From an uncultured Acidimicrobiia bacterium (GTDB lineage: Bacteria; Actinomycetota; Acidimicrobiia; UBA2766): a stretch of DNA of 64,000 nt. The notes beneath the pieces are model-generated. The model was not told where the DNA came from, did not search any database, and was given only the letters and a program-made list of their open reading frames with translations. The stretch is from positions 5,696 to 69,695 of the forward strand of contig CAYJLW010000013.1 of the NCBI GenBank assembly GCA_964370965.1, given 5' to 3'. Both the position numbers and the translations under genes were made by a program. This document shows, piece after piece, positions 42,777 through 55,604 of this stretch (position 1 is the stretch's first letter; each line of letters opens with the position of its first letter).

Positions 42777-44180
42777 ATGGCCGAAGTCGTCGACGTCCAC
42801 ATGCGCCAGAGCGACGCCTTCGCCTGGTACATGGAGGACGACCCGCTGTTGCGCTCCACGATCGTCGCCGTGGCGACGCTCGACCGGGCCCCCGACAGGG
42901 ACAGGTTCATGGAGGCGATGGAACGGGCGAGCCGCATGATCCCCGCCTTCCGCCAGAAGGTCGTGACCCCTCCGATGCGCCTCGCCACTCCCCGCTGGAC
43001 CTACGACCCCGACTTCGACCTCTCCTGGCACGTCCGGCGGGTCGAGGCCCCCGCCCCCAAGACGTTCGACACCGTCCTCCAGTTCGCCCGCAACACCGGC
43101 ATGACCGGCTTCGACCGCGCGCGGCCCCTGTGGGAATTCACCGTCGTCGAGGGCCTCGAGGACGCCCGGGCGGCGATCGTGATGAAGGTCCACCACTCCC
43201 TCACCGACGGCATCGGCGGCATGCAGCTCGCCATGCAGATCATCGACTTCGACCGCCAGGGCACCGATCGCGGGCCCCTGCCCGACGCCCCCGAAGGGGA
43301 GGACGTGGGCGCCGTCGACCTCATCCGCGACGCGATCGCCTACGACTGGGGCAGGGTGTACGAGGCCGCCCGTCACAGCGCCGGCGCCGCCCTTCCCACC
43401 GCGGTGGCGGCCGCCCGTCACCCGTTCCAGACAGCGTCGGAGGTCCTGCGCACGGTGCGCTCGGTGGCCCGCTTCGCCAGGCCCGTGAGCGAGACCCTCT
43501 CCCCCGTGATGACCGAGCGCCGCCTCGCCTGGCACTACGAGGTCCTGGACATCCCCTTCGACCGCCTCAAGGCGGCGGCCCGCGCCGGCGACTGCACGCT
43601 CAACGACGCCTTCATGGCCGGGGTACTGGGGGGGATGCGCCGCTACCACGAGCACCACGGCGCCCCCGCCGACGAGCTCCGCGTGACGATGCCGATCAGC
43701 CTTCGCAAGGCGGACGACCCCGCCGGGGGCAACCGCATCACGCTGGTCCGCTTCCAGGTTCCCGTCACCCTCACCGACCCCATCGCCCGCATGCAGGCGA
43801 TCGACTCCATCACGAAAGCCTGGCGCAACGAGCCCGCGATCCCCCTCTCCAACATCGTGGCCGGGGCGCTCAACCTTCTGCCCACGGGCTACACGGGCGG
43901 GATGCTCAAGCACGTGGACTTCCTCGCCAGCAACGTCCCCGGGGTGCCCATCCCCGTGTTCGTCGCCGGCGCGCAACTGGAGCGCTACTACGCTTTCGGC
44001 CCCACCATCGGGGCGTCCGTGAACATCACGCTCATCTCCTACTGCGGCGTCTGCTGCATCGGCGTGAACACGGACACGGGCGCCGTGGCCGACCACGAGG
44101 TCTTCCTGGACTGCCTCCGCGAGGGCTTCGAGGAGGTCACGTCCCTGGCCGATGACGTCCCCGCCGCCGGGCGCACGTGA
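42777..44180 (+). CDS. wax ester synthase / diacylglycerol acyltransferase (WS/DGAT)
   Basis: Catalytic HHSLTDGIGG (HHxxxDG) motif. About 467 aa, typical family size. Confidence 0.8.
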   Translation: MAEVVDVHMRQSDAFAWYMEDDPLLRSTIVAVATLDRAPDRDRFMEAMERASRMIPAFRQKVVTPPMRLATPRWTYDPDFDLSWHVRRVEAPAPKTFDTVLQFARNTGMTGFDRARPLWEFTVVEGLEDARAAIVMKVHHSLTDGIGGMQLAMQIIDFDRQGTDRGPLPDAPEGEDVGAVDLIRDAIAYDWGRVYEAARHSAGAALPTAVAAARHPFQTASEVLRTVRSVARFARPVSETLSPVMTERRLAWHYEVLDIPFDRLKAAARAGDCTLNDAFMAGVLGGMRRYHEHHGAPADELRVTMPISLRKADDPAGGNRITLVRFQVPVTLTDPIARMQAIDSITKAWRNEPAIPLSNIVAGALNLLPTGYTGGMLKHVDFLASNVPGVPIPVFVAGAQLERYYAFGPTIGASVNITLISYCGVCCIGVNTDTGAVADHEVFLDCLREGFEEVTSLADDVPAAGRT

Positions 44181-46506
44181 CAGCCCAACCGGTCGCCCGG
44201 CCGTGACCGAACCGCTTCGGCGGCGCTTCGTCGTGCGGGGCGTCGTACAGGGCGTCGGCTTCCGGCCCTTCGTGCACCGCCTCGCCGAGGATCTCGGCCT
44301 CTGCGGTTTCGTGGGCAACGACACCACGAGCGTCTTCGTGGAGGTCGAGGGCCTCGGGGGAGCCCTGGTGGACTTCGCCTCCAGACTCCGCTCGGAGGCC
44401 CCCGCCCTCGCCCGCATCGAGGACGTGAGGGCGGAGGACGTGCCCGCGCTGGGCGAGCCGGGCTTCGCGATCGTGCCCAGCCGCCACGAGCCCGGGACCG
44501 TCACACTCGTCCCCCCGGACGTGGCCACGTGCCCGGACTGCCTGGCGGAGCTTCGCGACCCGGCGGACCGCCGCTACCGGTACCCGTTCGTGAACTGCAC
44601 GAGATGCGGGCCCCGCTTCACGATCATCCGGGCCCTGCCCTACGACCGCTCCCGGACGACCATGGCGGCCTTCGCGCTCTGCCCCGACTGCGCCACGGAG
44701 TACGGGGACCCCAGGGACCGCCGCCACCACGCCGAGCCCGTCGCCTGCCCCGCCTGCGGACCCCGCCTCGAATTCCTCCCGGGGGCGGGGACGCCCGGTC
44801 ACCGCTCCGCTCGCGGAGCTCCGGCGCTGGAGGCCGCCCGCGACGTCCTCGCCGCCGGGGGGGTCCTGGCTGTGAAGGGTCTCGGCGGCTACCACCTGGC
44901 GTGCGACGCCGCCGACCCGGCGGCCGTGGCCCGTCTCCGGGAACGCAAGCGCCGGGAGGCCAAGCCCCTCGCCGTGATGGTCCGGGACCTCGCCGCCGCC
45001 CGGGCCCTCGCCGGCGTGGACGCCGCCGCCGCCGCCGTCCTCACGAGCCCGGCGCACCCCGTCGTCCTCCTCCGCAAACGGCACCGTCACGGCCCCGCCG
45101 AGCTCGCCGCTCCCGGCAACCCCGACGTCGGGATCATGCTCCCGTACACGCCCCTCCACCACCTCCTCCTGGAACCGGTCGCCGGTGCGCCCGCCGTCCT
45201 CGTCATGACGTCCGGGAACCTCTCGGACGAGCCCATCGCGTACGACGACACCGACGCCCGGAAGCGGCTCGCCCCCCTCGCCGACGCCTGGCTCGTCCAC
45301 GACCGGCCGATCCACGTGCCCTGCGACGACTCCGTGGTTCGGGTCCTCGACGGCGAGGTGTCTCCGATCCGACGCTCCCGGGGCTATGCCCCCTACCCCG
45401 TGGGCCTCCCGTTCGACGCCCCACCCACCCTCGCCGTGGGTGGGGAGGTCAAGAACACGTTCTGCCTCGCGGCGGGGAGGCACGCCTGGATGAGCCAGCA
45501 CATCGGGGACATGGCGGACCTCGAGACCCTCCACGCCTTCGAGCACTCCGTCGCCCGGCTCACGGACCTGTTCCGCGTGACGCCCGGGCGCGTGGCCGGG
45601 GACAGGCATCCCGGCTACCTGTCCGCCCGCTGGGCGCGGGAACGGGCGGCAGCCTCAGGGGTCCCTCTCGTCACCGTCCAGCACCACCACGCCCATCTCG
45701 CCGCCCTCCTCGCCGAGCACGGCCGGCCCCCCGGGGAACCCGCCATCGGGATCGTCTTCGACGGCGCCGGATACGGTGACGACGCCACGGTCTGGGGGGG
45801 CGAGGTCCTCGTGGGCGACTACGCGGGGTTCCGCCGTTTCGCCCACCTCGCGCCCGTCCCCCTGCCCGGCGGGGACGCCGCCGTGCGCCTCCCCCGCCGC
45901 ATGGCCCTCTCCCACCTCTGGGCGGCCGGAGTGCCGTGGGACGCCGACCTCCCCCCGTTCGCCGCGGCGGGCGCCGCGGAAAGCCGCGTGCTCGCCCGCC
46001 AACTCGAGACCGGATTCGCCACCACGCCCACGTCGAGCATGGGTCGCCTCTTCGACGCCGTCGCCTCCCTGGCCGGCCTCCGCCACGAGACCACGTTCGA
46101 GGCCCAGGCAGCCGTCGACCTCGAAGCCGCCGCGGCCGGTCGGGTCGAGGACGGCTACCGCTTCTACGTCCCCGCCGGAGGTGGGCCGGTGACGCCGACC
46201 CCGGTGGTGCGGGCCGTCGCCGGCGACGTCCGTGCCGGGACGGACCCTTCACTGGTCGCCGCGAGGTTCCACGGGGCCGTCGCCGACCTGGTCCTCCAGG
46301 CGGCGCGGCGCGCCCGGGACGCCACAGGCGTCCACGCAGTCGGCCTCACGGGCGGCGTGTTCCAGAACGGCCTCCTCGCCCGCAGCGCGGCCGCACTCCT
46401 CGCCGGCGACGGTTTCAAGGTCCTGGTCCACAAGGAGGTCCCCCCCAACGACGGGGGCATCGCCCTCGGCCAGGCGGCGGTGGCGGCGTTCACGCCCCTG
46501 GTGTGA
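44152..46506 (+). CDS. hypF: [NiFe]-hydrogenase maturation carbamoyltransferase HypF
   Basis: Acylphosphatase domain VRGVVQGVGFRPFV. Two Zn-finger pairs (CPDC...CTRCGPR, CPDC...CPACGPR). YrdC block AVKGLGGYHLACDA. Kae1-like C-terminal GGVFQN. Start is ATG at 44152, overlapping the WS/DGAT end, or GTG at 44213. Confidence 0.85.
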   Translation: MTSPPPGARDSPTGRPAVTEPLRRRFVVRGVVQGVGFRPFVHRLAEDLGLCGFVGNDTTSVFVEVEGLGGALVDFASRLRSEAPALARIEDVRAEDVPALGEPGFAIVPSRHEPGTVTLVPPDVATCPDCLAELRDPADRRYRYPFVNCTRCGPRFTIIRALPYDRSRTTMAAFALCPDCATEYGDPRDRRHHAEPVACPACGPRLEFLPGAGTPGHRSARGAPALEAARDVLAAGGVLAVKGLGGYHLACDAADPAAVARLRERKRREAKPLAVMVRDLAAARALAGVDAAAAAVLTSPAHPVVLLRKRHRHGPAELAAPGNPDVGIMLPYTPLHHLLLEPVAGAPAVLVMTSGNLSDEPIAYDDTDARKRLAPLADAWLVHDRPIHVPCDDSVVRVLDGEVSPIRRSRGYAPYPVGLPFDAPPTLAVGGEVKNTFCLAAGRHAWMSQHIGDMADLETLHAFEHSVARLTDLFRVTPGRVAGDRHPGYLSARWARERAAASGVPLVTVQHHHAHLAALLAEHGRPPGEPAIGIVFDGAGYGDDATVWGGEVLVGDYAGFRRFAHLAPVPLPGGDAAVRLPRRMALSHLWAAGVPWDADLPPFAAAGAAESRVLARQLETGFATTPTSSMGRLFDAVASLAGLRHETTFEAQAAVDLEAAAAGRVEDGYRFYVPAGGGPVTPTPVVRAVAGDVRAGTDPSLVAARFHGAVADLVLQAARRARDATGVHAVGLTGGVFQNGLLARSAAALLAGDGFKVLVHKEVPPNDGGIALGQAAVAAFTPLV

Positions 46507-46543
46507 AAGGATTCCCCGTGTCGCCGTCCAGCCCGAGCCTGCC

Positions 46544-47650
46544 GTGACCCCCGACACCGTACGGGCGATGGTGCTGGAGGCCCCCCGGCGCCTCGTCGCG
46601 CGGGACTTCCCGGTGCCCTCCCTCGGTGACGACGACGGCCTCCTGCGGGTCGAGGCGTGTGGCCTCTGCGGCACGGACCATGAGCAGTACACGGGGGCCC
46701 TCGCCGTCGGGTTCGCGTTCGTGCCCGGCCACGAGACGGTGGGAGTCCTGGTCGCGGCCGGCCCCGCGGCAGCACGGCGATGGGGCGTCGAGGTCGGAGA
46801 CCGGGTCGCCGTGGAGGTGTTCCAGTCCTGCCGTGCGTGCGAGCGGTGCCAGATCGGCGAGTACAACCGCTGCCCGGCGCACGGCCTCGCCGACATGTAC
46901 GGATTCGTCGACGCCGCTCGGGCGCCGGGCCTCTGGGGCGGCTACGCGCAGTACCAGTACCTCGCCCCGGACACGATGCTGCACAGGGTGCCCGACGGCC
47001 TCGACCCGGCCCTCGCCACGCTCTTCAACCCGTTGGGGGCCGGGATCCGTTGGGGTGTCACGCTGCCCGCCACGAGGCCCGGCGACGTCGTCGCCGTGCT
47101 CGGCCCGGGCGTTCGCGGCCTCTCTGTCGTGGCCGCCGTGCGAGAGGCCGGAGCCGGCTTCGTCGTCGTAACCGGCAGTGGCGAGCCTGACCGGCCCCGC
47201 CTCGGGCAGGCCGGCGCTTTCGGCGCCGACCTCACCCTCGACGTGGCGACGACCGACCCCGTCCGGGCCCTGAAGGACGCCTCTGGCGGCCTCGCCGACG
47301 TGGTGGTCGACGTGACCGCCAACGCGCCCGATGCCTTCGCCCAGGGCGTCGCTCTCACGCGCCCGGGCGGCACGTTCGTCGTCGCCGGCACCCGTGGGGC
47401 CCGCGGCGCTCCGGGCTTTCAGCCGGACACGGTGGTCCGCAGGGAGATCCGCATCCTGGGAGCGCTCGGCGTCGACGCCCCGGCGTACAGGGACGCTCTC
47501 GGAGTACTCGCCGGCGGCAGGTACCCCTTCGCCCAGTTGCCGCGGACAGTCGTTGGTCTCGACGGCGTCGCCGGGCTCCTGCGCGACATGGCCGGCGAGG
47601 GCAGCGGCGCCCCGCCGCTGCACGGGGTCGTGGCACCCCAACCGCCGTGA
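46544..47650 (+). CDS. zinc-dependent alcohol dehydrogenase (MDR family)
   Basis: CGLCGTDHE and GHETVG catalytic-zinc blocks, CRACERC structural-zinc block, GPGVRG Rossmann motif. Start is GTG at 46544 or ATG at 46568. Confidence 0.8.
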   Translation: MTPDTVRAMVLEAPRRLVARDFPVPSLGDDDGLLRVEACGLCGTDHEQYTGALAVGFAFVPGHETVGVLVAAGPAAARRWGVEVGDRVAVEVFQSCRACERCQIGEYNRCPAHGLADMYGFVDAARAPGLWGGYAQYQYLAPDTMLHRVPDGLDPALATLFNPLGAGIRWGVTLPATRPGDVVAVLGPGVRGLSVVAAVREAGAGFVVVTGSGEPDRPRLGQAGAFGADLTLDVATTDPVRALKDASGGLADVVVDVTANAPDAFAQGVALTRPGGTFVVAGTRGARGAPGFQPDTVVRREIRILGALGVDAPAYRDALGVLAGGRYPFAQLPRTVVGLDGVAGLLRDMAGEGSGAPPLHGVVAPQPP

Positions 47651-47662
47651 GTTGCCCGTGGT

Positions 47663-48331
47663 TCAGCCGATCGCCGGGCTCGCGCCGGTGGTGCCGGTGA
47701 GGCCCGCCGGGCAGGCCACGCCGGTACCGCCGGCCCCGCAGTGGCCCGCGGGGTTCTTCGCCAGGTACTGCTGGTGTGAGGCCTCCGCGTAGAAGAACGG
47801 GGGTGCCGCACGGATCTCGGTGGTGATCTCCCCGAATCCCGCGGCCGCGAGCACTCCCTGGTAGGCCTCCCGCGACGCCTCCGCTTCGAGGAGTTGGCCC
47901 TGGGACGTGCAGTACACGGCGCTGCGGTACTGCGTGCCGACGTCGTTTCCCTGGCGCATCCCCTGCGTGGGGTCGTGGGCCTCCCAGAAGAGGCGGAGCA
48001 GGTCTCCGTAGCCGGTGGCCGCCGGGTCGTACACGACGAGGACGACCTCCGCGTGGCCGCTGAGGCCGGTGCAGACCTCGTCGTAGTCCGGGTTCAGCGT
48101 GTACCCGCCGGCGTAGCCCACGGCCGTCGTGTAGACCCCCGGCGCCTCCCAGAAGAGACGCTCGGCGCCCCAGAAGCACCCCATCCCGAACACGGCGACC
48201 TCGGTGCCTTCCGGGAACGGGGGAAGCATCGGGTGGCCGTTCACATGGTGCTCGGGGGGCACCGGCATCGGCGCGGCCCGCCCCGGGGGGGCTTCGCTAA
48301 CCGATGGCATCCTCGTGTAGCGCCTGTTCAC
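47663..48331 (-). CDS. msrA: peptide methionine sulfoxide reductase MsrA
   Basis: GCFWG active-site motif. GTG at 48331 behind GGGAGGG. Confidence 0.85.
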
Positions 48332-48567
48332 GGAATCGTGTCCCTCCCGCGCGTGCGCGTTCCCCAGAATCTACGGCGATGAGACCACGTCGTGGCGGCA
48401 GTCCTCCCGGCGCATGAACCCGGCGATCCCGTTCATGACGTAGTGGTGTGTGGGCTCAGGCGGGGACGGCACGACACGGCGGTCGACGAAGAACGTGTTC
48501 GCTCCCGGGCCGCCGCCCGCCTTCTCATCGGCACCTCGGGCCGGACTGAACCCGGGCGGCTCAACCG

Positions 48568-48588
48568 ACATGGCAATCCTGTATTCGG
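48568..48588. promoter_or_regulatory. AT-rich repeat CTGTATTCGGTTGTATTACAG (TGTATT direct repeat within a CTGTA/TACAG inverted repeat) upstream of the BrnTA-like module
   Basis: Seen directly in the sequence. Lies in the low-GC leader 20 bp upstream of the toxin-gene start. Confidence 0.35.
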
Positions 48589-48606
48589 TTGTATTACAGT
48601 GGCAAG

Positions 48607-48913
48607 GTGGCTGAGCGGTTCGAACTCGAGGCGTTGGACGACGACGACCCGTTCGAGATCGATCGACAGTACGACACACCTGTTCAAGCATGCGGGCCTC
48701 GGCATTGACGACGTCTACGACGTGTGGCAATCCGACCCTCTCTTCTACCCGGCAAAGCCGCCGGCGCACTGGCTCATGGTGAGCGACGTCGCGGGCGACA
48801 TTCTCGTCGTGCCACTCGCCCCGTCCGATACCGCCCACCCAGCCAAGTGCCGTCCAATCGGGTGCTATGTCGCATCGGCGCACCTCGCCGCCCTCTACCG
48901 GAAGGACCAATGA
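48607..48913 (+). pseudogene. BrnT-like (DUF497) toxin, frameshifted
   Basis: Frame 1 from GTG at 48607 gives VAERFELEALDDDDPFEIDRQYDTPVQACGPRH*, an FEWD-like N-terminus. Frame 2 continues HLFKHAGLGIDDVYDVWQSDPLFYP...ILVVPL...CRPIGCYVASAHLAALY, which parallels BrnT N..KHGVSFEEA..VF.DP ... IRIISAR.A. Stop forms an ATGA overlap with the antitoxin start. Confidence 0.45.
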
Positions 48914-49143
48914 AGGATCACATGTCTCGCGAAGAGGAATACGAGTTCTACGCCCGGCCGGAGAACCAAGAGCCCCAGGGGCCCGCCCGCCGCCGGAAGC
49001 CGAAGCTGACCGAGATGGTGCCGGTGCGCTTCCCAACAGACACCCTCGAAGAAGTCCGACGGCGAGCCGGCGACGACGACCGGTCGGTCTCGAGCTGGAT
49101 CCGGCGTGCCGTCGAGGAAGCGCTGCACCGCCAAGCAGGGTGA
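48910..49143 (+). CDS. BrnA-like RHH/CopG-family antitoxin
   Basis: MKDHMSREEEYEFYARPENQEP...LTEMVPVRFPTDTLEEVRRRAGDDDRSVSSWIRRAVEEAL has a C-terminal RHH signature. Confidence 0.55.
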   Translation: MKDHMSREEEYEFYARPENQEPQGPARRRKPKLTEMVPVRFPTDTLEEVRRRAGDDDRSVSSWIRRAVEEALHRQAG

Positions 49144-49342
49144 CACACCCCTCGCTGGTCTTCACACGGATGTTCCTCACACCCGATCCGGTCGCGTGGC
49201 CGCGACCCGTTGCAGGAGCTCCGCCTGCCCCCGCGGGAGCCGAACGGTGTTCGCGTGCAGGACGTAACGTCTGCGTTCCATCCTGCACGCGATCAGCCCC
49301 CAACCTGACCCGGATGCCAGCGGGATCAACCCTGACGAGCTG

Positions 49343-49750
49343 TTGATCGGCTTGCCCGAGGTCAACGTCCGAGGGGTGCACGACGAGCCCGGCGGGCCGC
49401 TGCGGGTCCATGTTGAGTCCCGGCTCGATCAGGGCTGGTGCCGCGAGTGCGGGGCCCGCGCTGCGATCAAGGACCGGTCGGCGGTCGAGTTCGTAGACTT
49501 GCCGCGCTTCGGGCGGCCGACCCGGCTGGTGTGGCACAAGCAGCGGTGGCGCTGCCGCGAACCGGCGTGTCCGGCGGGGTCCTGGACGATCCTCGACGAG
49601 CGGATCGCCGGGGCGCGGGCCGCGTTGACGAACCGGGCCGGGCGGTGGGCGACGGTCCAAGTCGGCCGGTTGGGCCGCTCGGTGAACGAGGTCGCCGGCG
49701 AGCTGAGCTGTGACTGGCACACCGTGAACGACGCGGTGATCGCCTCATCA
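49343..49750 (+). mobile_element. ISL3-family transposase N-terminal fragment (IS remnant)
   Basis: zf-ISL3 region CRECGARAAIKDRSAVEFVDLPRFGRPTRLVWHKQRWRCREPACP followed by an HTH block (GRSVNEVAGELSCDWHTVNDAV). Sense breaks after about 135 aa, with no DDE domain. An 11-bp-stem inverted repeat lies at 49252-49291 upstream. Confidence 0.6.
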
Positions 49751-51373
49751 GGCGTCTTCCCAGCGCATCCGCTCGGCCGCCTCCACGGCGGCGAGCACGC
49801 CGCGGGCCTTGTTGCGGGTCTCCTTGTACTCGAGCTCCGGCACCGAGTCCGCCACCACACCGCCGGCGGCCTGGACGTGTGCGACGCCGTCCTTGATGAC
49901 AGCCGTCCGCAACGTGATCGCGAGGTCCATGCTCCCGGAGAAGTCCACGTAGCCCATCACGCCGGCATACGGGCCCCGCTGCGTGGGTTCGAGCTCGTCG
50001 ATGATCTCCATGGCGCGCACCTTGGGGGCGCCCGTCACCGTGCCGGCGGGGAACGTCGCGCGGAACACGTCCACGGGCCTGACGCCGGGGCGGGTCCGGC
50101 AGTCGACGGACGACACGATGTGCATCACGTGGCTGTAGCGCTCGACCACCATGAGCTCCCCGACATGCACGGTGCCGAAGGCCCCGACGCGCCCGAGGTC
50201 GTTGCGGGCGAGGTCGACGAGCATGACGTGCTCGGCCCGCTCCTTCGGGTCCCCGAGGAGCTCGCCTGCCAGGGCGGCGTCCTCCTCGTCCGTGCGCCCC
50301 CGCCGTCGCGTACCGGCCAGGGGCCGCGCGTGGACACGGCCGTCCGAGAAGCGCACGAGCTCCTCGGGCGACGCCGACACGATCGTGACCTCAGGGTGGC
50401 GGATGAAGCTCATGTACGGCGACGGGCTCACAAGGCGCAGCGCCCGGTGCACGGCGAAGGGATCGACGGTGAGCGGGCGACTGAAGCGCTGGCTCACCTG
50501 CACCTGGAAGACGTCCCCCGCCAGGATGTACTCCTTGGCCGCCTCCACCGCCGCGCAGAAGTCCGACTTCGTGCGGTTCGACCGGGCGTCGGGCACTTCC
50601 GCAGGGAAGTGCGGCGCCACGGGCGGGTAGACGGCGGGCACCCGCAGCTCCGCCCGGAGACGCTCGAGCTCGTCGAGGCCGTCGTTGTAGCGGCGCCTGA
50701 GCTCGCCCACGTCCCCCCGGCCGTCGAGGTCGTCGAGGTAGACGTTGCGGATGAGGACGAGGCGCTGGCGGAAGTGGTCGAAAGCCACCACCGTGCCCGT
50801 GGCCGCCAGGAGCACGTCGGGCACCCCGAGGTGGTCCGGGTTCGAGACCGGCACACGGGGCTCGATGAAACGCACGGTCTCGTATCCCCAGTAGCCCACG
50901 AGACCCGAATGCAGCGGCGGGAGACCGTCGAGACGGGGCGCACGGTAGCGCTCCAGGAGGGATTCGATCATCACCAGCGGGTCGCCGCCGACGGTTCCCG
51001 CGGGCGCCTCGCCCTCCCAAGTCACCGTGTCCCCTTTGGACTTCATGACGAGGTGCGGGTCTCGCCCGAGGAACGAGAACCGGCCCCAGCGCTCGCCCCG
51101 GATCACGGACTCCAGGAGGAAGCTCCGCTCGTCGCCGAGCTTCAGGAAGGCGGAGACGGGCGTCTCCACGTCGGCGAGCACCTCGCACCACACGGGCACG
51201 ACCGTGTAGTCCGCGGCCAGGCTGGCGAACGTGCCGAAATCCGGCAGGACGACGGTTCCGGCGGGGTCCTCGGCCTCGGGACCGGGGCCCACGCCCGTGA
51301 GCTCGCTCACGGCACGGCCGGAGCGGGGCTGGGCGACTGCCCCGTGCCGCTGCCGAAGCGCCGGTAGAAGCAC
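49748..51373 (-). CDS. trpE: anthranilate synthase component I
   Basis: Chorismate-binding C-terminal blocks ([32 protein letters not shown]). Start is ATG at 51373 or GTG at 51320; both overlap the hisI end. Confidence 0.75.
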
Positions 51374-51687
51374 GACCGCTCCCCGGTGTGGCAGGCGGCC
51401 CCGTGCTGGCGCACGACCACGAGCAGGCAGTCGACGTCGCAGTCGTAGCGCACCTCCACCACCTCCTGGTAGTTCCCGGACGTGGCGCCCTTCACCCAGT
51501 ACTCCTGGCGGCTCCGGCTCCAGTAGCAGGTGCGTCCGGAGTCGAGAGTGCGCGCCAAGGCCTCCGCGTCCATGTAGGCGACCATGAGAACCTCGAGGGT
51601 GTCGACGTCCTGCACGACCGCGGTGACAAGGCCGGCGCCGTCGAAGCGGACGGCGGCGATCTCTTCGGCAACGACCGGGATGCTCAT
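51307..51687 (-). CDS. hisI: phosphoribosyl-AMP cyclohydrolase
   Basis: 126 aa. HisI zinc-binding C...C region ([10 protein letters not shown]). Confidence 0.85.
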
Positions 51688-51735
51688 CGGCCGGTCATGG
51701 TAGGCGCTGCGTAACTCGCTCCCCCCGGAAATCCC

Positions 51736-52509
51736 TCAGGCCCGGGGGAGGCGCACGGTGACACCCGCGGCGGCGAGGGCCTCCTTGGCCTCGCGGATCG
51801 TGTGTTGGCCGTAGTGGAAGACGGAGGCCGCGAGGACGGCGTCCGCGCGACCCGCCACGACGCCCTCCACGAGGTGATCAAGGGCGCCGACCCCGCCGGA
51901 CGCCACGATGGGAACGTCGACCGCCCGCCGCACGGCCCGCAGGAGACCGATGTCGTAGCCGTCCCTCGTGCCGTCCCGGTCCATCGACGTGAGAAGGATC
52001 TCCCCCGCCCCGAGCTCCACGACGGTCTCGGCCCACACCGCCACGTCCAGACCGGTGGGGGTGCGCCCCCCGTGCGTCCAGACCCGCCAGGAGTCCCCCG
52101 CCCGGCGGGCGTCGACGGCGACGACGACGCACTGCGCCCCGAAGGCGTCGGAGGCCTCCGCGACAAGGCGGGGGCTCTCGACGGCGGCGGTGTTGATCGA
52201 CACCTTGTCCGCCCCCGCCCGCAAGAGGCGCCGGACGTCGTCGACGGAGCGCACCCCGCCGCCCACGGTGAGGGGGATGAACACCTCGCCCGCCGTCTCC
52301 TCGACGACGTGGTAGAGCGTCTCGCGCTCCTCGTGGCTCGCCGTGATGTCGAGGAAGACGAGCTCGTCGGCGCCCTCGGCGTCGTAACGGGCGGCGAGCT
52401 CCACGGGATCCCCCGCGTCGCGGATCTCGACGAACTGCACGCCCTTGACGACGCGGCCGGCGTCGACGTCCAGGCAGGGGATGACACGGGTGGCCAGGGA
52501 CGACTTCAC
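51736..52509 (-). CDS. hisF: imidazole glycerol phosphate synthase cyclase subunit
   Basis: [16 protein letters not shown]...SGGVG (beta/alpha)8 HisF blocks. GTG start forms a GTGA overlap with the hisA stop. Confidence 0.9.
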
Positions 52510-53267
52510 GCCGCACCCGCCCCGGCGCCGTCCGGGGCGCCCCCGATGGCAGCGAGCGCCTCGCCCACCCCGAACCGGTCCTCGTAGATCGCCTTGCCCA
52601 CGACGGCGCCCCCGAGACGCCGCCCGGCGACCTCCAGGCGGGCCAGCACCCGGAGATCCTCCAGGCAGGACACCCCGCCGGACGCGAGCACGGGCACGTC
52701 CACCCGGGCGAGAAGGCGGGCGAGGCCGGCGTGGTCAGGGCCGGCGAGCATGCCGTCCCGGCCGACCTCCGTGGCCAGCAGGGCGGCCACCCCGAGGCCG
52801 GCGAGGCGTCCGGCGAGCTCCTCCGGGGTCACGTCACCCGCCCGCCGCCAACCGTCGACGGCCACCTGGCCCTCACGGGCGTCCACGGCGGCGGCGACAC
52901 GCCCCGGGTGACGGCCGGCGAGGCGCTCCACGAGGCCGGGGTCGGCCACAGCCGCCGTTCCCAGGACGACCCGCGCACAGCCGGCGGCGAGAGCGGCCTC
53001 GGCGCTCGCTTCGTCCCGGAGGCCACCCCCGGTCTGCACGCTCACGTCAACGGTGGAGGCGATCGCCGCCACGACGTCGTGGTTGTCCCGCCCGGTCCCC
53101 AGGGCGCCGTCGAGGTCGACGACATGGATCCAGCGGGCGCCCGCTGCCGCGAAGCGTTCCGCCCGACCGACCGGGTCGTAGTCGTAAACCGTGACGTCGT
53201 CGGGGTTGCCCTGCAGGAGACGCACGCAACGGCCCCCCAACAGATCGATCGCCGGATACAGGTCCAT
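52506..53267 (-). CDS. hisA: phosphoribosyl isomerase HisA/PriA
   Basis: [15 protein letters not shown]...SGGV blocks. In Actinobacteria this enzyme is usually the bifunctional PriA. Confidence 0.85.
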
Positions 53268-53269
53268 GC

Positions 53270-53947
53270 TCAAGCCTCCCCCGCCTCACGCTCCGCACGG
53301 GCGCCGAGGCAGAGACCGAGGAAGTTCTCCCAGATCCGCAGGCCGTCGCCGGAGGACTTCTCGGGGTGGAACTGCACCGCCCACGTCCTGCCCTGTTCCA
53401 GAGCGCCCACGAAGACCGGCCCGTACTCCGCCAGCGCCTCCTCGGCCCCGGTGCCGGGAACGACCCCGTAGGAGTGGCAGAAGTAGAAGCGGGTGGACGG
53501 ATGGACGCCGGCGAAGAGCCTGCCACCGGTCTTCCAGGTGAGCTGATCCCAGCCCATGTGGGGAACCGACAGGCCGCCCCCTCCGACCTTCACACAGTTC
53601 CCGGCCACGATGCCGAGACCGATTGCCCCCCCCTCGTCGGAGCTCTCGGCAAGGATCTGCATCCCCACGCAGATACCGAGGAAGGGCCGGTCCCGCTGGC
53701 ACCACTCCATCACGACGTGGTCCAGCTCGGCCTCACGGAGGTTCTCCACACAGCGGTCGAAGTGCCCCTGGCCGGGGAGGACGAGGCCGTCGAAGGCCTG
53801 CGGGTCGAAGCCGTCGCCGTGGGAGACGAGGGCAGTGACCGCGCCCGCCTTCTCCGCGGCCCGCGACACCGAACGCAGGTTGCCCATCCCGTAGTCGCAG
53901 ATCGCCAAACGGGCGGGGCGCTGTTCCCCGCGCGGAGGGCCGTTCAC
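53270..53947 (-). CDS. hisH: imidazole glycerol phosphate synthase glutamine amidotransferase subunit
   Basis: ICDYGMGNL N-terminus, catalytic GICVGMQ, and C-terminal HPEKS. Confidence 0.9.
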   Translation of the reverse strand: MNGPPRGEQRPARLAICDYGMGNLRSVSRAAEKAGAVTALVSHGDGFDPQAFDGLVLPGQGHFDRCVENLREAELDHVVMEWCQRDRPFLGICVGMQILAESSDEGGAIGLGIVAGNCVKVGGGGLSVPHMGWDQLTWKTGGRLFAGVHPSTRFYFCHSYGVVPGTGAEEALAEYGPVFVGALEQGRTWAVQFHPEKSSGDGLRIWENFLGLCLGARAEREAGEA

Positions 53948-54534
53948 GCCAGCATGCCCTTCGTCGACGGCACTGCGCCCCCCCGGCGGGGATCCGGGGT
54001 GAGGGCGTCAGAGAGCGCCCGGGCGATGCCCTTGAACGCCACCTCGCAGACGTGGTGCGGGTTGCGGCCCGTCTCGGAACGTACGTGCAGCGTGATCCCG
54101 GCGTCGGTCACGAAGGCGCGCAGGAACTCCTCGAGGAGCTGCGGGTCGAACTCGAGGATGCGTTCGCCGCCGGTGTCCACCTCGTAAAGGAGGTAAGGCC
54201 GCCCCGAGAGGTCGAGCGCCACCGTGGCCCGGGCCTCGTCGAGGACCGTGGTGGCCCAGCCGAAGCGGCGCAGCCCACCACGGTCGCCCACGGCCGCCCG
54301 GAAGGCCCGCCCCAGGGTGATGCCCACGTCCTCCACCGTGTGGTGGTGGTCGACATCGAGGTCGCCGGTGGCCGCCACGGCGAGACCGAGGCCGCCGTGG
54401 CGCCCGAGCTGGGCGAGCATGTGGTCGAAGAAGGGCATCCCGGTCTCCACGGTGACCTCGCCCCCGTCGAGGTCGAGCTCGACGGCGACATCGGTCTCGC
54501 CCGTGGTGCGCCGCTCGGACGACTTCCGGCTCAC
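53944..54534 (-). CDS. hisB: imidazoleglycerol-phosphate dehydratase
   Basis: RTTGETDV...FFDHMLAQLGRHG...DVDHHHTVEDVGI motifs. GTG start forms a GTGA overlap with the hisC stop. Confidence 0.85.
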   Translation of the reverse strand: MSRKSSERRTTGETDVAVELDLDGGEVTVETGMPFFDHMLAQLGRHGGLGLAVAATGDLDVDHHHTVEDVGITLGRAFRAAVGDRGGLRRFGWATTVLDEARATVALDLSGRPYLLYEVDTGGERILEFDPQLLEEFLRAFVTDAGITLHVRSETGRNPHHVCEVAFKGIARALSDALTPDPRRGGAVPSTKGMLA

Positions 54535-55604
54535 GTGCCCACGTCCGCCAGGGCTGCCGCGAGGGCGTCGAGGAACATCTCGTTCTCCTCCGGGGTGCCG
54601 ACATTCACCCGGAGGCAGTTCGGTGTCTCCGGGTTCCCGGCGAAGTCTCGCACGAGGACGCCGCGATCGAGGAGACCCTGCCACACGACCTCGGCGTCGC
54701 CGGCGGGGCGGAAGAGCACGAAGTTCGCCTCCGACGGCCAGGCCCGCACGCCGGGCAGTGCGGCGAGGCCCTCCTCGATGCGGCGGCGGCCGGCGACGAG
54801 CGCGTCCACCCGGGCCCGCATCTCGTCCGGGTAGCGCAGGGCGAGGACGCCCGCCGCCTGCGCCACGGCGTCGACGTGGTAGGGCAGGTGCGCCGGCTCG
54901 AGGAGGTCGACGATCCCGGGTGCGGCCACCACGTAGCCGATGCGGAGGCCGGCGAGGGACCATGCCTTGGAGAGGGTGCGCACGACGGCGAGGTTGGCGC
55001 GCCGGCCCACCCAGCCCACGACGCTCTCTCCGGCGAACTCGGCGTAGGCCTCGTCGACGACCACGAGGGCGTCGGGGGCGGCATCGAGGGCCGCCGCCAC
55101 GGCGTCGAAGCGCTCGGCGTTCCCGGTGGGGTTGTTCGGGTGGCAGAAGAACACGACGTCAGGACGGTGCGCGGCGAGGGCGTCGCTCACGTCTCCGGGA
55201 CCGACACGGAAGTCGGCGTCACGCGGAGCGCGCACGACCGTCGTGCCCGTCATCTCTGCGATGTGCGTGTGGAGCGCGTACGTGGGCGTGAAGACCAATG
55301 CCCGGCGTCCGGGGCCCCCGAAGGCGAGCAAGAGCGTGAGGAGCACCTCGTTGGACCCGTGCCCGGCGAAGACCGCCCCGGCGTCCACCCCGCAGTACCC
55401 GGCGAGCTCCTCGCGCAGCGCCGCCGCCGCCCGGTCGGGGTAGCGGTTGAGGGGCAGCTTCTCCACGGCCGCGGCGAGCTCGACCATGAACCCGGGGGGC
55501 GGCGGGTAGGGGCTCTCGTTGGTGTTAAGGCGTGCGGCGACGTCCACTTGCGGGGAGTGGTAGCCCGCCATGACGGCGAGGTCGGCGCGGAGTCGCGGGG
55601 GCAT
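54531..55604 (-). CDS. hisC: histidinol-phosphate aminotransferase
   Basis: Class-II aminotransferase with a PLP-lysine block TLSKAWSLAGLRIGY. ATGA overlap with the hisD stop. Confidence 0.85.
   Translation of the reverse strand: MPPRLRADLAVMAGYHSPQVDVAARLNTNESPYPPPPGFMVELAAAVEKLPLNRYPDRAAAALREELAGYCGVDAGAVFAGHGSNEVLLTLLLAFGGPGRRALVFTPTYALHTHIAEMTGTTVVRAPRDADFRVGPGDVSDALAAHRPDVVFFCHPNNPTGNAERFDAVAAALDAAPDALVVVDEAYAEFAGESVVGWVGRRANLAVVRTLSKAWSLAGLRIGYVVAAPGIVDLLEPAHLPYHVDAVAQAAGVLALRYPDEMRARVDALVAGRRRIEEGLAALPGVRAWPSEANFVLFRPAGDAEVVWQGLLDRGVLVRDFAGNPETPNCLRVNVGTPEENEMFLDALAAALADVGT

Follow-up and report, generated by a model that had tools for sequence, protein, structure and literature searches.

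The closest described relatives of the gene pair considered here are two toxin-first toxin-antitoxin (TA) modules. BrnT/BrnA of Brucella abortus (PDB 3U97) consists of a toxin gene followed by an overlapping or abutting ribbon-helix-helix (RHH) gene whose product has an N-terminal extension. The BrnT residues K16, H17, and R72 are required for toxicity (PMC13284704), and BrnA, an RHH protein, represses its own operon (PMC11980606). RelS-RelI (Rv2663-Rv2664) of Mycobacterium tuberculosis is likewise toxin-first, and its toxin has a BrnT-like fold and a K9/H10 pair that is required for toxicity (PMC13284704). We analyzed a 64,000-nucleotide stretch of contig CAYJLW010000013.1 from an uncultured Acidimicrobiia bacterium (the window) and focused on the ~1.4 kb of debris between msrA and trpE, which a first-pass annotation had taken for a decayed patch of mobile DNA. 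That assessment agrees with our own: the interval is a foreign, low-G+C patch that probably holds two unrelated dead pieces of mobile DNA, namely a recently broken BrnT-like toxin/RHH cassette and a much more decayed relic of an ISL3 transposase gene. The locus itself is ordinary genome decay; the two-gene family to which the cassette belongs is the by-product of wider interest.

The first piece (48578-49144) is one copy of a compact, self-contained cassette made of a putative -10/operator region, a 101-codon toxin-like gene with a probably leaderless transcript, and a gene for a 77-aa RHH protein. The toxin-like gene starts with GTG at 48607 and is broken by one extra base near 48670. The segment in the second frame reads ...THLFKHAGLGIDDV...CRPIGCY... 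or, in a longer form, ...THLFKHAGLGIDDVYDVWQSDPLFYPAKPPAHWLMV...CRPIGCYVAS...KDQ. When the repaired protein was used as a tblastn query, it returned two abutting pieces, 48607-48678 and 48674-48910, where homologues read FEIDRQ-xx-HLFKH straight across. We place the extra base at ~48668-48676 because the window has 7 nt ("tacgaca") where intact homologues carry 6 nt. The nearest DNA relative (L172, 81% identity over 48578-49144) puts the surplus base at ~48670, in CAG-T-ACG-ACA-CAC; homology to this relative spans exactly the cassette unit, with none outside it. The first-pass annotation had recognized that the toxin is split across two frames but had put the shift at 48690-48706; the real site lies 20-35 nt upstream. 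The toxin gene product is dead because it ends after 33 residues, ahead of the conserved Lys-His (K-H) motif and the whole β-sheet.

Apart from the extra base, we found no damage in the toxin-like gene. Its body keeps all family-invariant residues, and of the 56 columns that are strongly conserved in the family, the protein deviates from the consensus in 4 (family baseline 2.1 ± 1.4), each time with a residue that occurs in other members. Because the toxin carries this single lesion only, its inactivation looks recent, consistent with a scenario in which a single-base insertion after codon 21 would have killed the toxin not long ago. We also considered whether the split toxin might be expressed via programmed +1 ribosomal frameshifting, for which the rare CGA codon just upstream of the shift could be cited. 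However, the shift site offers neither a slippery nor a re-pairing sequence, and none of the 18 + 72 aligned homologues or the 80 loci requires one; we therefore rejected this explanation, which is barely credible.

By fold, motif, and architecture, the toxin family is probably a divergent BrnT relative that the current model of the BrnT family does not capture. For the closest intact member, AlphaFold predicts an α-α-β4-α topology (predicted local distance difference test [pLDDT] 90.6; predicted template modeling score [pTM] 0.83); the top fold matches of this model were two bona fide BrnT-family toxins, in line with a BrnT-type RelE/BECR fold. One BrnT-family structure, 7vd7_A, belongs to PF04365 and is named "BrnT family toxin"; it is chain A of a toxin-antitoxin complex from Salmonella Typhimurium (PDB 7VD7), on which a literature search found no paper, and its similarity to the present family is solely profile-profile (E 2e-5). 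An hhalign comparison of a diverse family profile (38-66% identity) with a low-diversity BrnT alignment gave a probability of 76.9% and an E value of 2.1e-5 over 84 columns, pairing FEID with FEWD and K27-H28 with K16-H17 of BrnT. Thus, the FE-x-D and K-H motifs of BrnT align with this family, in which K27-H28 is invariant among 72 members. The family shares with BrnT/BrnA the gene order, the overlapping or abutting RHH gene, and the N-terminal extension, and with RelS-RelI the actinobacterial hosts, the toxin-first order, the BrnT-like fold, and the K-H pair. In contrast to BrnT/BrnA, it is Actinomycetota-centred, has invariant motifs of its own (PPAHWLM and CRPIGCY) and an acidic N-terminal extension of ~15 residues, and is represented in the window by a frameshifted copy. 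By analogy, an intact member would be expected to act as a toxic RNase.

The RHH gene is intact, as had been annotated. Its product matches the Pfam model Arc at 24.4 bits (cut-off 20.4) and the NCBIfam model YlcI_YnfO_N at 30.1 (cut-off 30). Arc and RHH_1 match 21 of 21 RHH family members, with the RHH DNA-binding domain at the C terminus; the predicted helices (46-54 and 60-75) come after a conserved VPVRF strand segment. A single-sequence structure model (pLDDT 70, pTM 0.25) was too poor for a fold search. The gathering scores of the BrnA and CopG models were not reached: CopG_antitoxin (PF12441) scored 14 bits against a cut-off of 28 for the window protein and matched 13 of the 21 members weakly, and BrnA_antitoxin (PF14384) matched one of the 21, at E 0.008. 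The earlier proposal of a BrnTA architecture therefore stands for the toxin-first order and the ATGA overlap, the latter also seen in the closest relatives, and fails for the PF04365, BrnA, and CopG_antitoxin models. The RHH gene may really start at a second methionine codon, 48922, which is conserved among the homologues sampled in a 21-sequence alignment. A Shine-Dalgarno-like GGAAGGA lies ahead of the gene at 48900-06.

Upstream of the toxin-like gene, we found a 21-nt consensus, CGTATCCGTTTGTAATACACT, that is common to 62 anchored upstream regions (L001-L080) and is thus conserved at the DNA level across two actinobacterial classes. The consensus is a palindrome, TGTA(A/T)TACA, over a TAnnnT -10-like hexamer, and a gap of 6-9 nt separates the motif from the start codon at 60 of the 62 loci; in the window, the motif ends 6 nt ahead of the GTG start. 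Because the -10-like hexamer sits 6-9 nt from the start codon, the arrangement implies that the toxin mRNA would be leaderless or near-leaderless and that the predicted operator would lie over the promoter. We liken this conserved palindrome to the autorepression known from BrnA: the RHH protein would neutralize the toxin and, by binding the palindrome that overlaps the -10 element, also keep the operon repressed. Since the promoter/operator, the RHH gene, and its Shine-Dalgarno-like sequence are all intact in the window, the RHH protein is probably still made, and it would then persist as an orphan autorepressor.

A family search with the repaired 102-aa window toxin returned 560 homologous proteins, nearly all of ~101 aa and at 63-79% identity; none carries a Pfam domain or any name beyond "hypothetical." The toxin family is small and tight, since just 275 clusters at E ≤ 1e-3 came out of an exhaustive hidden Markov model (HMM) search through 1.84 billion cluster representatives. 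We located 363 loci in species-representative genomes, nearly all from Actinomycetota (Acidimicrobiia and Actinomycetes), with Mycolicibacter, Gordonia, Ornithinimicrobium, and many metagenome-assembled genomes (MAGs) of Acidimicrobiia among the bearers. An RHH homologue follows the toxin gene at -1 to +42 nt in 79 of 80 loci; at the remaining locus, the contig stops short. A literature search found no paper on any member of this toxin family. The toxin-RHH pair is a tight, Actinomycetota-centred two-gene family that is not yet described. Two cassette-bearing MAG contigs (L004 and L025) are labelled Burkholderiales and "delta proteobacterium," labels that reflect either a binning error or a rare transfer.

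Homologous cassettes were found in mobile contexts, beside a relaxase, an integrase fragment, or insertion sequences (ISs), and on the Hoyosella subflava plasmid pAS9A-2. On that plasmid, RefSeq lists a "hypothetical protein" followed by the RHH homologue as a "YlcI/YnfO family protein" (PGAP), and the neighbours are a recombinase, an IS6 transposase, and a VapBC pair. The Ornithinimicrobium panacihumi cassette (571 bp, 100% identity) ends two contigs and begins two others (L038, L043, L044, and L046). Because four contigs end or begin in the cassette, it must exist there in two or more identical copies, each with its own flanks, that break the assembly. Elsewhere, the cassette is a contig of its own (O. 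cerasi, L026, 615 bp; Serinicoccus sediminis, L030, 619 bp). Given the exact multiple copies in O. panacihumi and the stand-alone contigs in two species, the 0.6-kb unit seems to multiply or move by itself, with no transposase inside.

The second piece (49322-49745) is an ISL3 transposase gene cut down to its N-terminal third; its start codon, both ends, and the catalytic domain are gone. It matches Zn_ribbon_ISL3 at 31.7 bits (cut-off 25.5), HTH_Tnp_ISL3 at 18 bits, below the cut-off, and positions 2-108 of the 370 of the NCBIfam profile transpos_ISL3 (58 bits against a cut-off of 180); the catalytic domain DDE_Tnp_ISL3 is absent from the window copy. The ISL3 assignment of the first-pass annotation therefore held for the zinc ribbon, with the helix-turn-helix (HTH) score falling short and no DDE domain behind it. 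By blastn, the nucleotide identity to three related loci (L085-L087) is 83-87% over 49336-49745 alone, and the alignment reaches back to ~49322. The closest ISL3 proteins (82-84% identity) go on into the DDE domain (...YGEALL...LGLDET...). The left end of the element at L085 and L086, ~120 nt upstream of the transposase start, is GGCTCTTCGGATCTG..., of the classic ISL3 type GGCTCTTCG...; no match to this terminal inverted repeat was found in the window with up to 3 mismatches allowed. In the window copy, a 9-nt deletion takes an internal methionine, AGC replaces the GTG start, and there is no 5' untranslated region. Compared with ISL3 insertion sequences, the window copy has kept the zinc ribbon and HTH from the transposase N terminus but has no start codon, neither inverted repeat, and no part of the DDE domain; it is a relic, not an element.

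The stump abuts trpE, as had been noted before: homology ends at codon 134, 3 nt short of the trpE stop codon. A deletion of the 3' part of ISL3 would have halted there because selection spares trpE, and the position of the deletion end fits selection against deletions into trpE. A DDE-less family of short proteins was also considered as a home for the stump, as ISL3 homologues of 120-234 aa exist. We rejected this candidate: the sequences enter the DDE domain before a contig end or decay truncates them and are thus ordinary ISL3. The nearest ISL3 relative is itself a 228-codon stump (L086, 1969-2655; L087, 64-750) overlapped by an antisense ApeA_NTD1 gene, and cut-down copies of this ISL3 lineage seem common. 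At one other locus (L065, 286-1561), a cassette has an ISL3 N terminus ~430 nt downstream in the same orientation, of another lineage (42% identity). The association of cassette and ISL3 is probably coincidental because ISL3-like sequence of any kind lies near 5 of the 80 cassette loci.

Several points weigh against the interpretation of the locus as a broken BrnT-like TA cassette beside an ISL3 relic, and we set them out here together with the alternatives to which they lend weight. One is that all frameshift-bearing assemblies apparently trace back to a single study and a single strain population, as would also be the case if the cells had an intact toxin gene and the frameshift were an artefact that arose in sequencing or assembly. 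We consider an artefact very improbable. Three metagenome assemblies from different samples (L081-L083; 46x, 7x, and 10x), each assembled separately, are 100% identical to the window over the 1.5 kb from 48300 to 49800, and at least 24 contigs in ENA metagenome assemblies encode exactly the RHH protein of the window. The sequence context of the shift, CAGTACGACACAC, is not a homopolymer, and independent gene callers also left the toxin gene uncalled in the identical ENA contigs. Because the identical sequence occurs in at least three independent assemblies, assembly error is unlikely; judged from these assemblies, we take the frameshift, whose reality the first-pass annotation had left conditional, as a fixed feature of this population.

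The RHH protein may be decaying too. It has an E-to-A substitution at a position where 75 of 78 homologues have Glu, plus an H-to-E substitution in the same VEHEL motif, so that the window reads VEEAL versus V(E/D)HEL in 61 of 80 homologues. These two changes in a near-invariant motif fit a picture in which the whole cassette is dead and drifting and the RHH gene is intact merely because little time has elapsed, and not because it is maintained for orphan repression or anti-addiction. The lone toxin lesion, hence a recent event, and the loss of translational coupling of the RHH gene to the gene upstream fit the same picture. However, the promoter/operator is intact, the RHH protein keeps every invariant residue, and its 3 deviations in total are no more than the family baseline (1.6 ± 1.6) allows. 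We regard drift of the whole cassette as a serious possibility, if not one that we would back outright. Within one population, selective retention of the RHH gene and decay that has yet to begin would look alike, and the two odd substitutions make us lean slightly toward drift. The antitoxin retention suggested in the first pass is therefore not borne out as a selected state, given the single, recent-looking toxin lesion and the two unusual residues at conserved RHH positions.

The kinship with BrnT is also open to objection. The PF04365 (DUF497/BrnT) model, which the first-pass annotation had expected to apply, matched neither the repaired window protein nor any of 18 close and 32 diverse members at E ≤ 10. 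NCBIfam gave no model match for the toxin, hhalign of a shallow family profile against single BrnT sequences found nothing, and a PDB sequence search with the family profile gave chance matches alone. In the hhalign alignment, R72 of BrnT aligns to a tyrosine (Y87), and another arginine, R82 in CRPIGCY, is near-invariant. Because the R72 position is a tyrosine in this family, its chemistry may differ from that of BrnT, and its active site may be altered. The names "toxin" and "antitoxin" for the family are, moreover, inferred. Along with the subthreshold BrnA and CopG scores of the RHH protein, the missing PF04365 match and the change at R72 are further differences from BrnT/BrnA.

These results raise the alternative that the pair is not a TA module but a 101-aa non-toxic BECR-fold protein, such as a regulator partner or a nucleic-acid binder, with an RHH transcription factor. 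The absence of HMM membership and of any PADLOC match for the cassette, the replacement of the catalytic arginine of BrnT by tyrosine, and a degree of conservation unusual for a TA family (63-79% identity over two classes) would all agree with it. On the other hand, the best fold matches are genuine BrnT-family toxins and the K-H motif is conserved; the strict toxin-first pairing with an RHH gene and the operator over the -10 element are as in type II TA modules; and mobile contexts, the multicopy state, and inactivation of only the first gene, as here, are typical of such modules. We therefore judge a non-TA pair quite unlikely and retain the BrnT-like TA cassette as the preferred reading.

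The last point concerns the insertion itself. A metagenome scan with MsrA for an empty site found none, as relatives reached only ≤73% identity, and none was syntenic to trpE, the alcohol dehydrogenase gene, or the small open reading frame (ORF) orf66. With no empty site found, the insert boundaries and the order of events given here are presumptive.

A more far-reaching proposal would make the pair a distinct, Actinomycetota-centred, BrnT-derived TA clade with a remodelled active site (K-H kept, Arg to Tyr, and a new invariant Arg in CRPIGCY), carried as a self-contained, leaderless 0.6-kb cassette with a highly conserved operator; the RHH protein that survives in the window would be maintained against newly arriving copies of the cassette, as an anti-addiction factor or orphan repressor. 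Taken as a whole, we consider this proposal unlikely. The two-gene family is very conserved and occurs in hundreds of actinobacterial species, where Pfam, NCBIfam, PADLOC, and RefSeq leave it as a "hypothetical protein" and a generic RHH protein. It would extend actinobacterial TA inventories by a BrnT-like branch beside the recently described RelS-RelI, and the locus in the window is a natural toxin-null allele that could be used for ideas about orphan antitoxins.

The coordinates of the cassette, the ISL3 relic, and the neighbouring features are collected in the table. The G+C content is 63-67% over ~48300-49350 versus 72-75% in the flanking genes, and 71% in the window as a whole. There is no evident consequence of the debris for msrA or trpE. 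A comparison of flank DNA and peptides with all fetched loci gave no match, and an Rfam scan of 48200-49900 found nothing.

Table. Features between msrA and trpE and the flanking genes, in window coordinates
Feature	Position	Strand	Description
msrA	47663-48268/48331	-	PF01625; flanking gene
Orphan 66-codon ORF (orf66)	48371-48571	-	Called by ENA annotators; upstream of msrA
Predicted promoter/operator motif	48580-48600	+	TGTATTCGGTTGTATTACAGT; -10-like TACAGT at 48595-600, overlapped by palindrome TGTATTACA at 48590-98
Toxin-like gene, N-terminal piece	48607-48708	+	21 native codons (VAERFELEALDDDDPFEIDRQ), 12 out-of-frame codons, TGA at 48706-08
Frameshift site	48668-48676	+	One surplus base (e.g., T48670) relative to all intact homologues, from protein and DNA alignments
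Toxin-like gene body, +1 frame	48671-48913	+	TTHLFKH...PPAHWLM...CRPIGCY...KDQ; TGA at 48911-13
RHH antitoxin-like gene	48910-49143	+	Intact, 77 aa; ATGA overlap with toxin at 48910-13; alternative start ATG at 48922
Imperfect palindrome/hairpin	49248-49295		22-nt arms at 49248-69 and 49274-95, 19 of 22 paired, 4-nt loop
ISL3 transposase remnant	49322-49745	+	Zinc ribbon and HTH, 134 codons from 49343; no DDE domain
trpE	49748-51310/51373	-	Chorismate_bind and Anth_synt_I_N; complete; stop codon at 49748-50; flanking gene

The hairpin between the two pieces lies outside both the toxin-RHH unit and the ISL3 homology. It corresponds to the inverted repeat with an 11-bp stem that had been reported at 49252-49291 as a possible leftover IS end; the repeat exists and is larger than described. 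We rejected it as an end of this ISL3 because the left end of the lineage, as given above, differs from it and is absent from the window. The hairpin, whose folding energy is -31.1 kcal/mol (z = -5.5), is present in a single copy in the window, lacks a T-run, and matched nothing in Rfam; it may represent a terminator without a U-tract or a leftover of some other sequence. The contig of a low-coverage assembly (L084) stops at 49292, within the palindrome, with mismatches that resemble a fold-back artefact; we therefore rejected this contig end as a repeat boundary.

The 246-bp gap between msrA and the cassette contains orf66, which has a coding-like third-position G+C content (GC3) of 0.87-0.90 in its 3' two-thirds. 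Neither a Pfam search of the flank peptides and orf66 nor clustering, in which it formed a cluster of one, gave it a homologue or a family; orf66 may be the relic of a lost gene, or spurious.

On the other side of the interval, hisC-hisB-hisH-hisA-hisF-hisI lie upstream of trpE on the minus strand (49748-55143). trpC, trpB, and trpA do not come after trpE; the debris, msrA, an alcohol dehydrogenase gene, hypF, and a wax-ester synthase gene (42910-47650) stand there instead. Because the debris and these genes, and not the trpC/B/A continuation, follow trpE, the arrangement suggests an IS-associated event at a rearrangement breakpoint.

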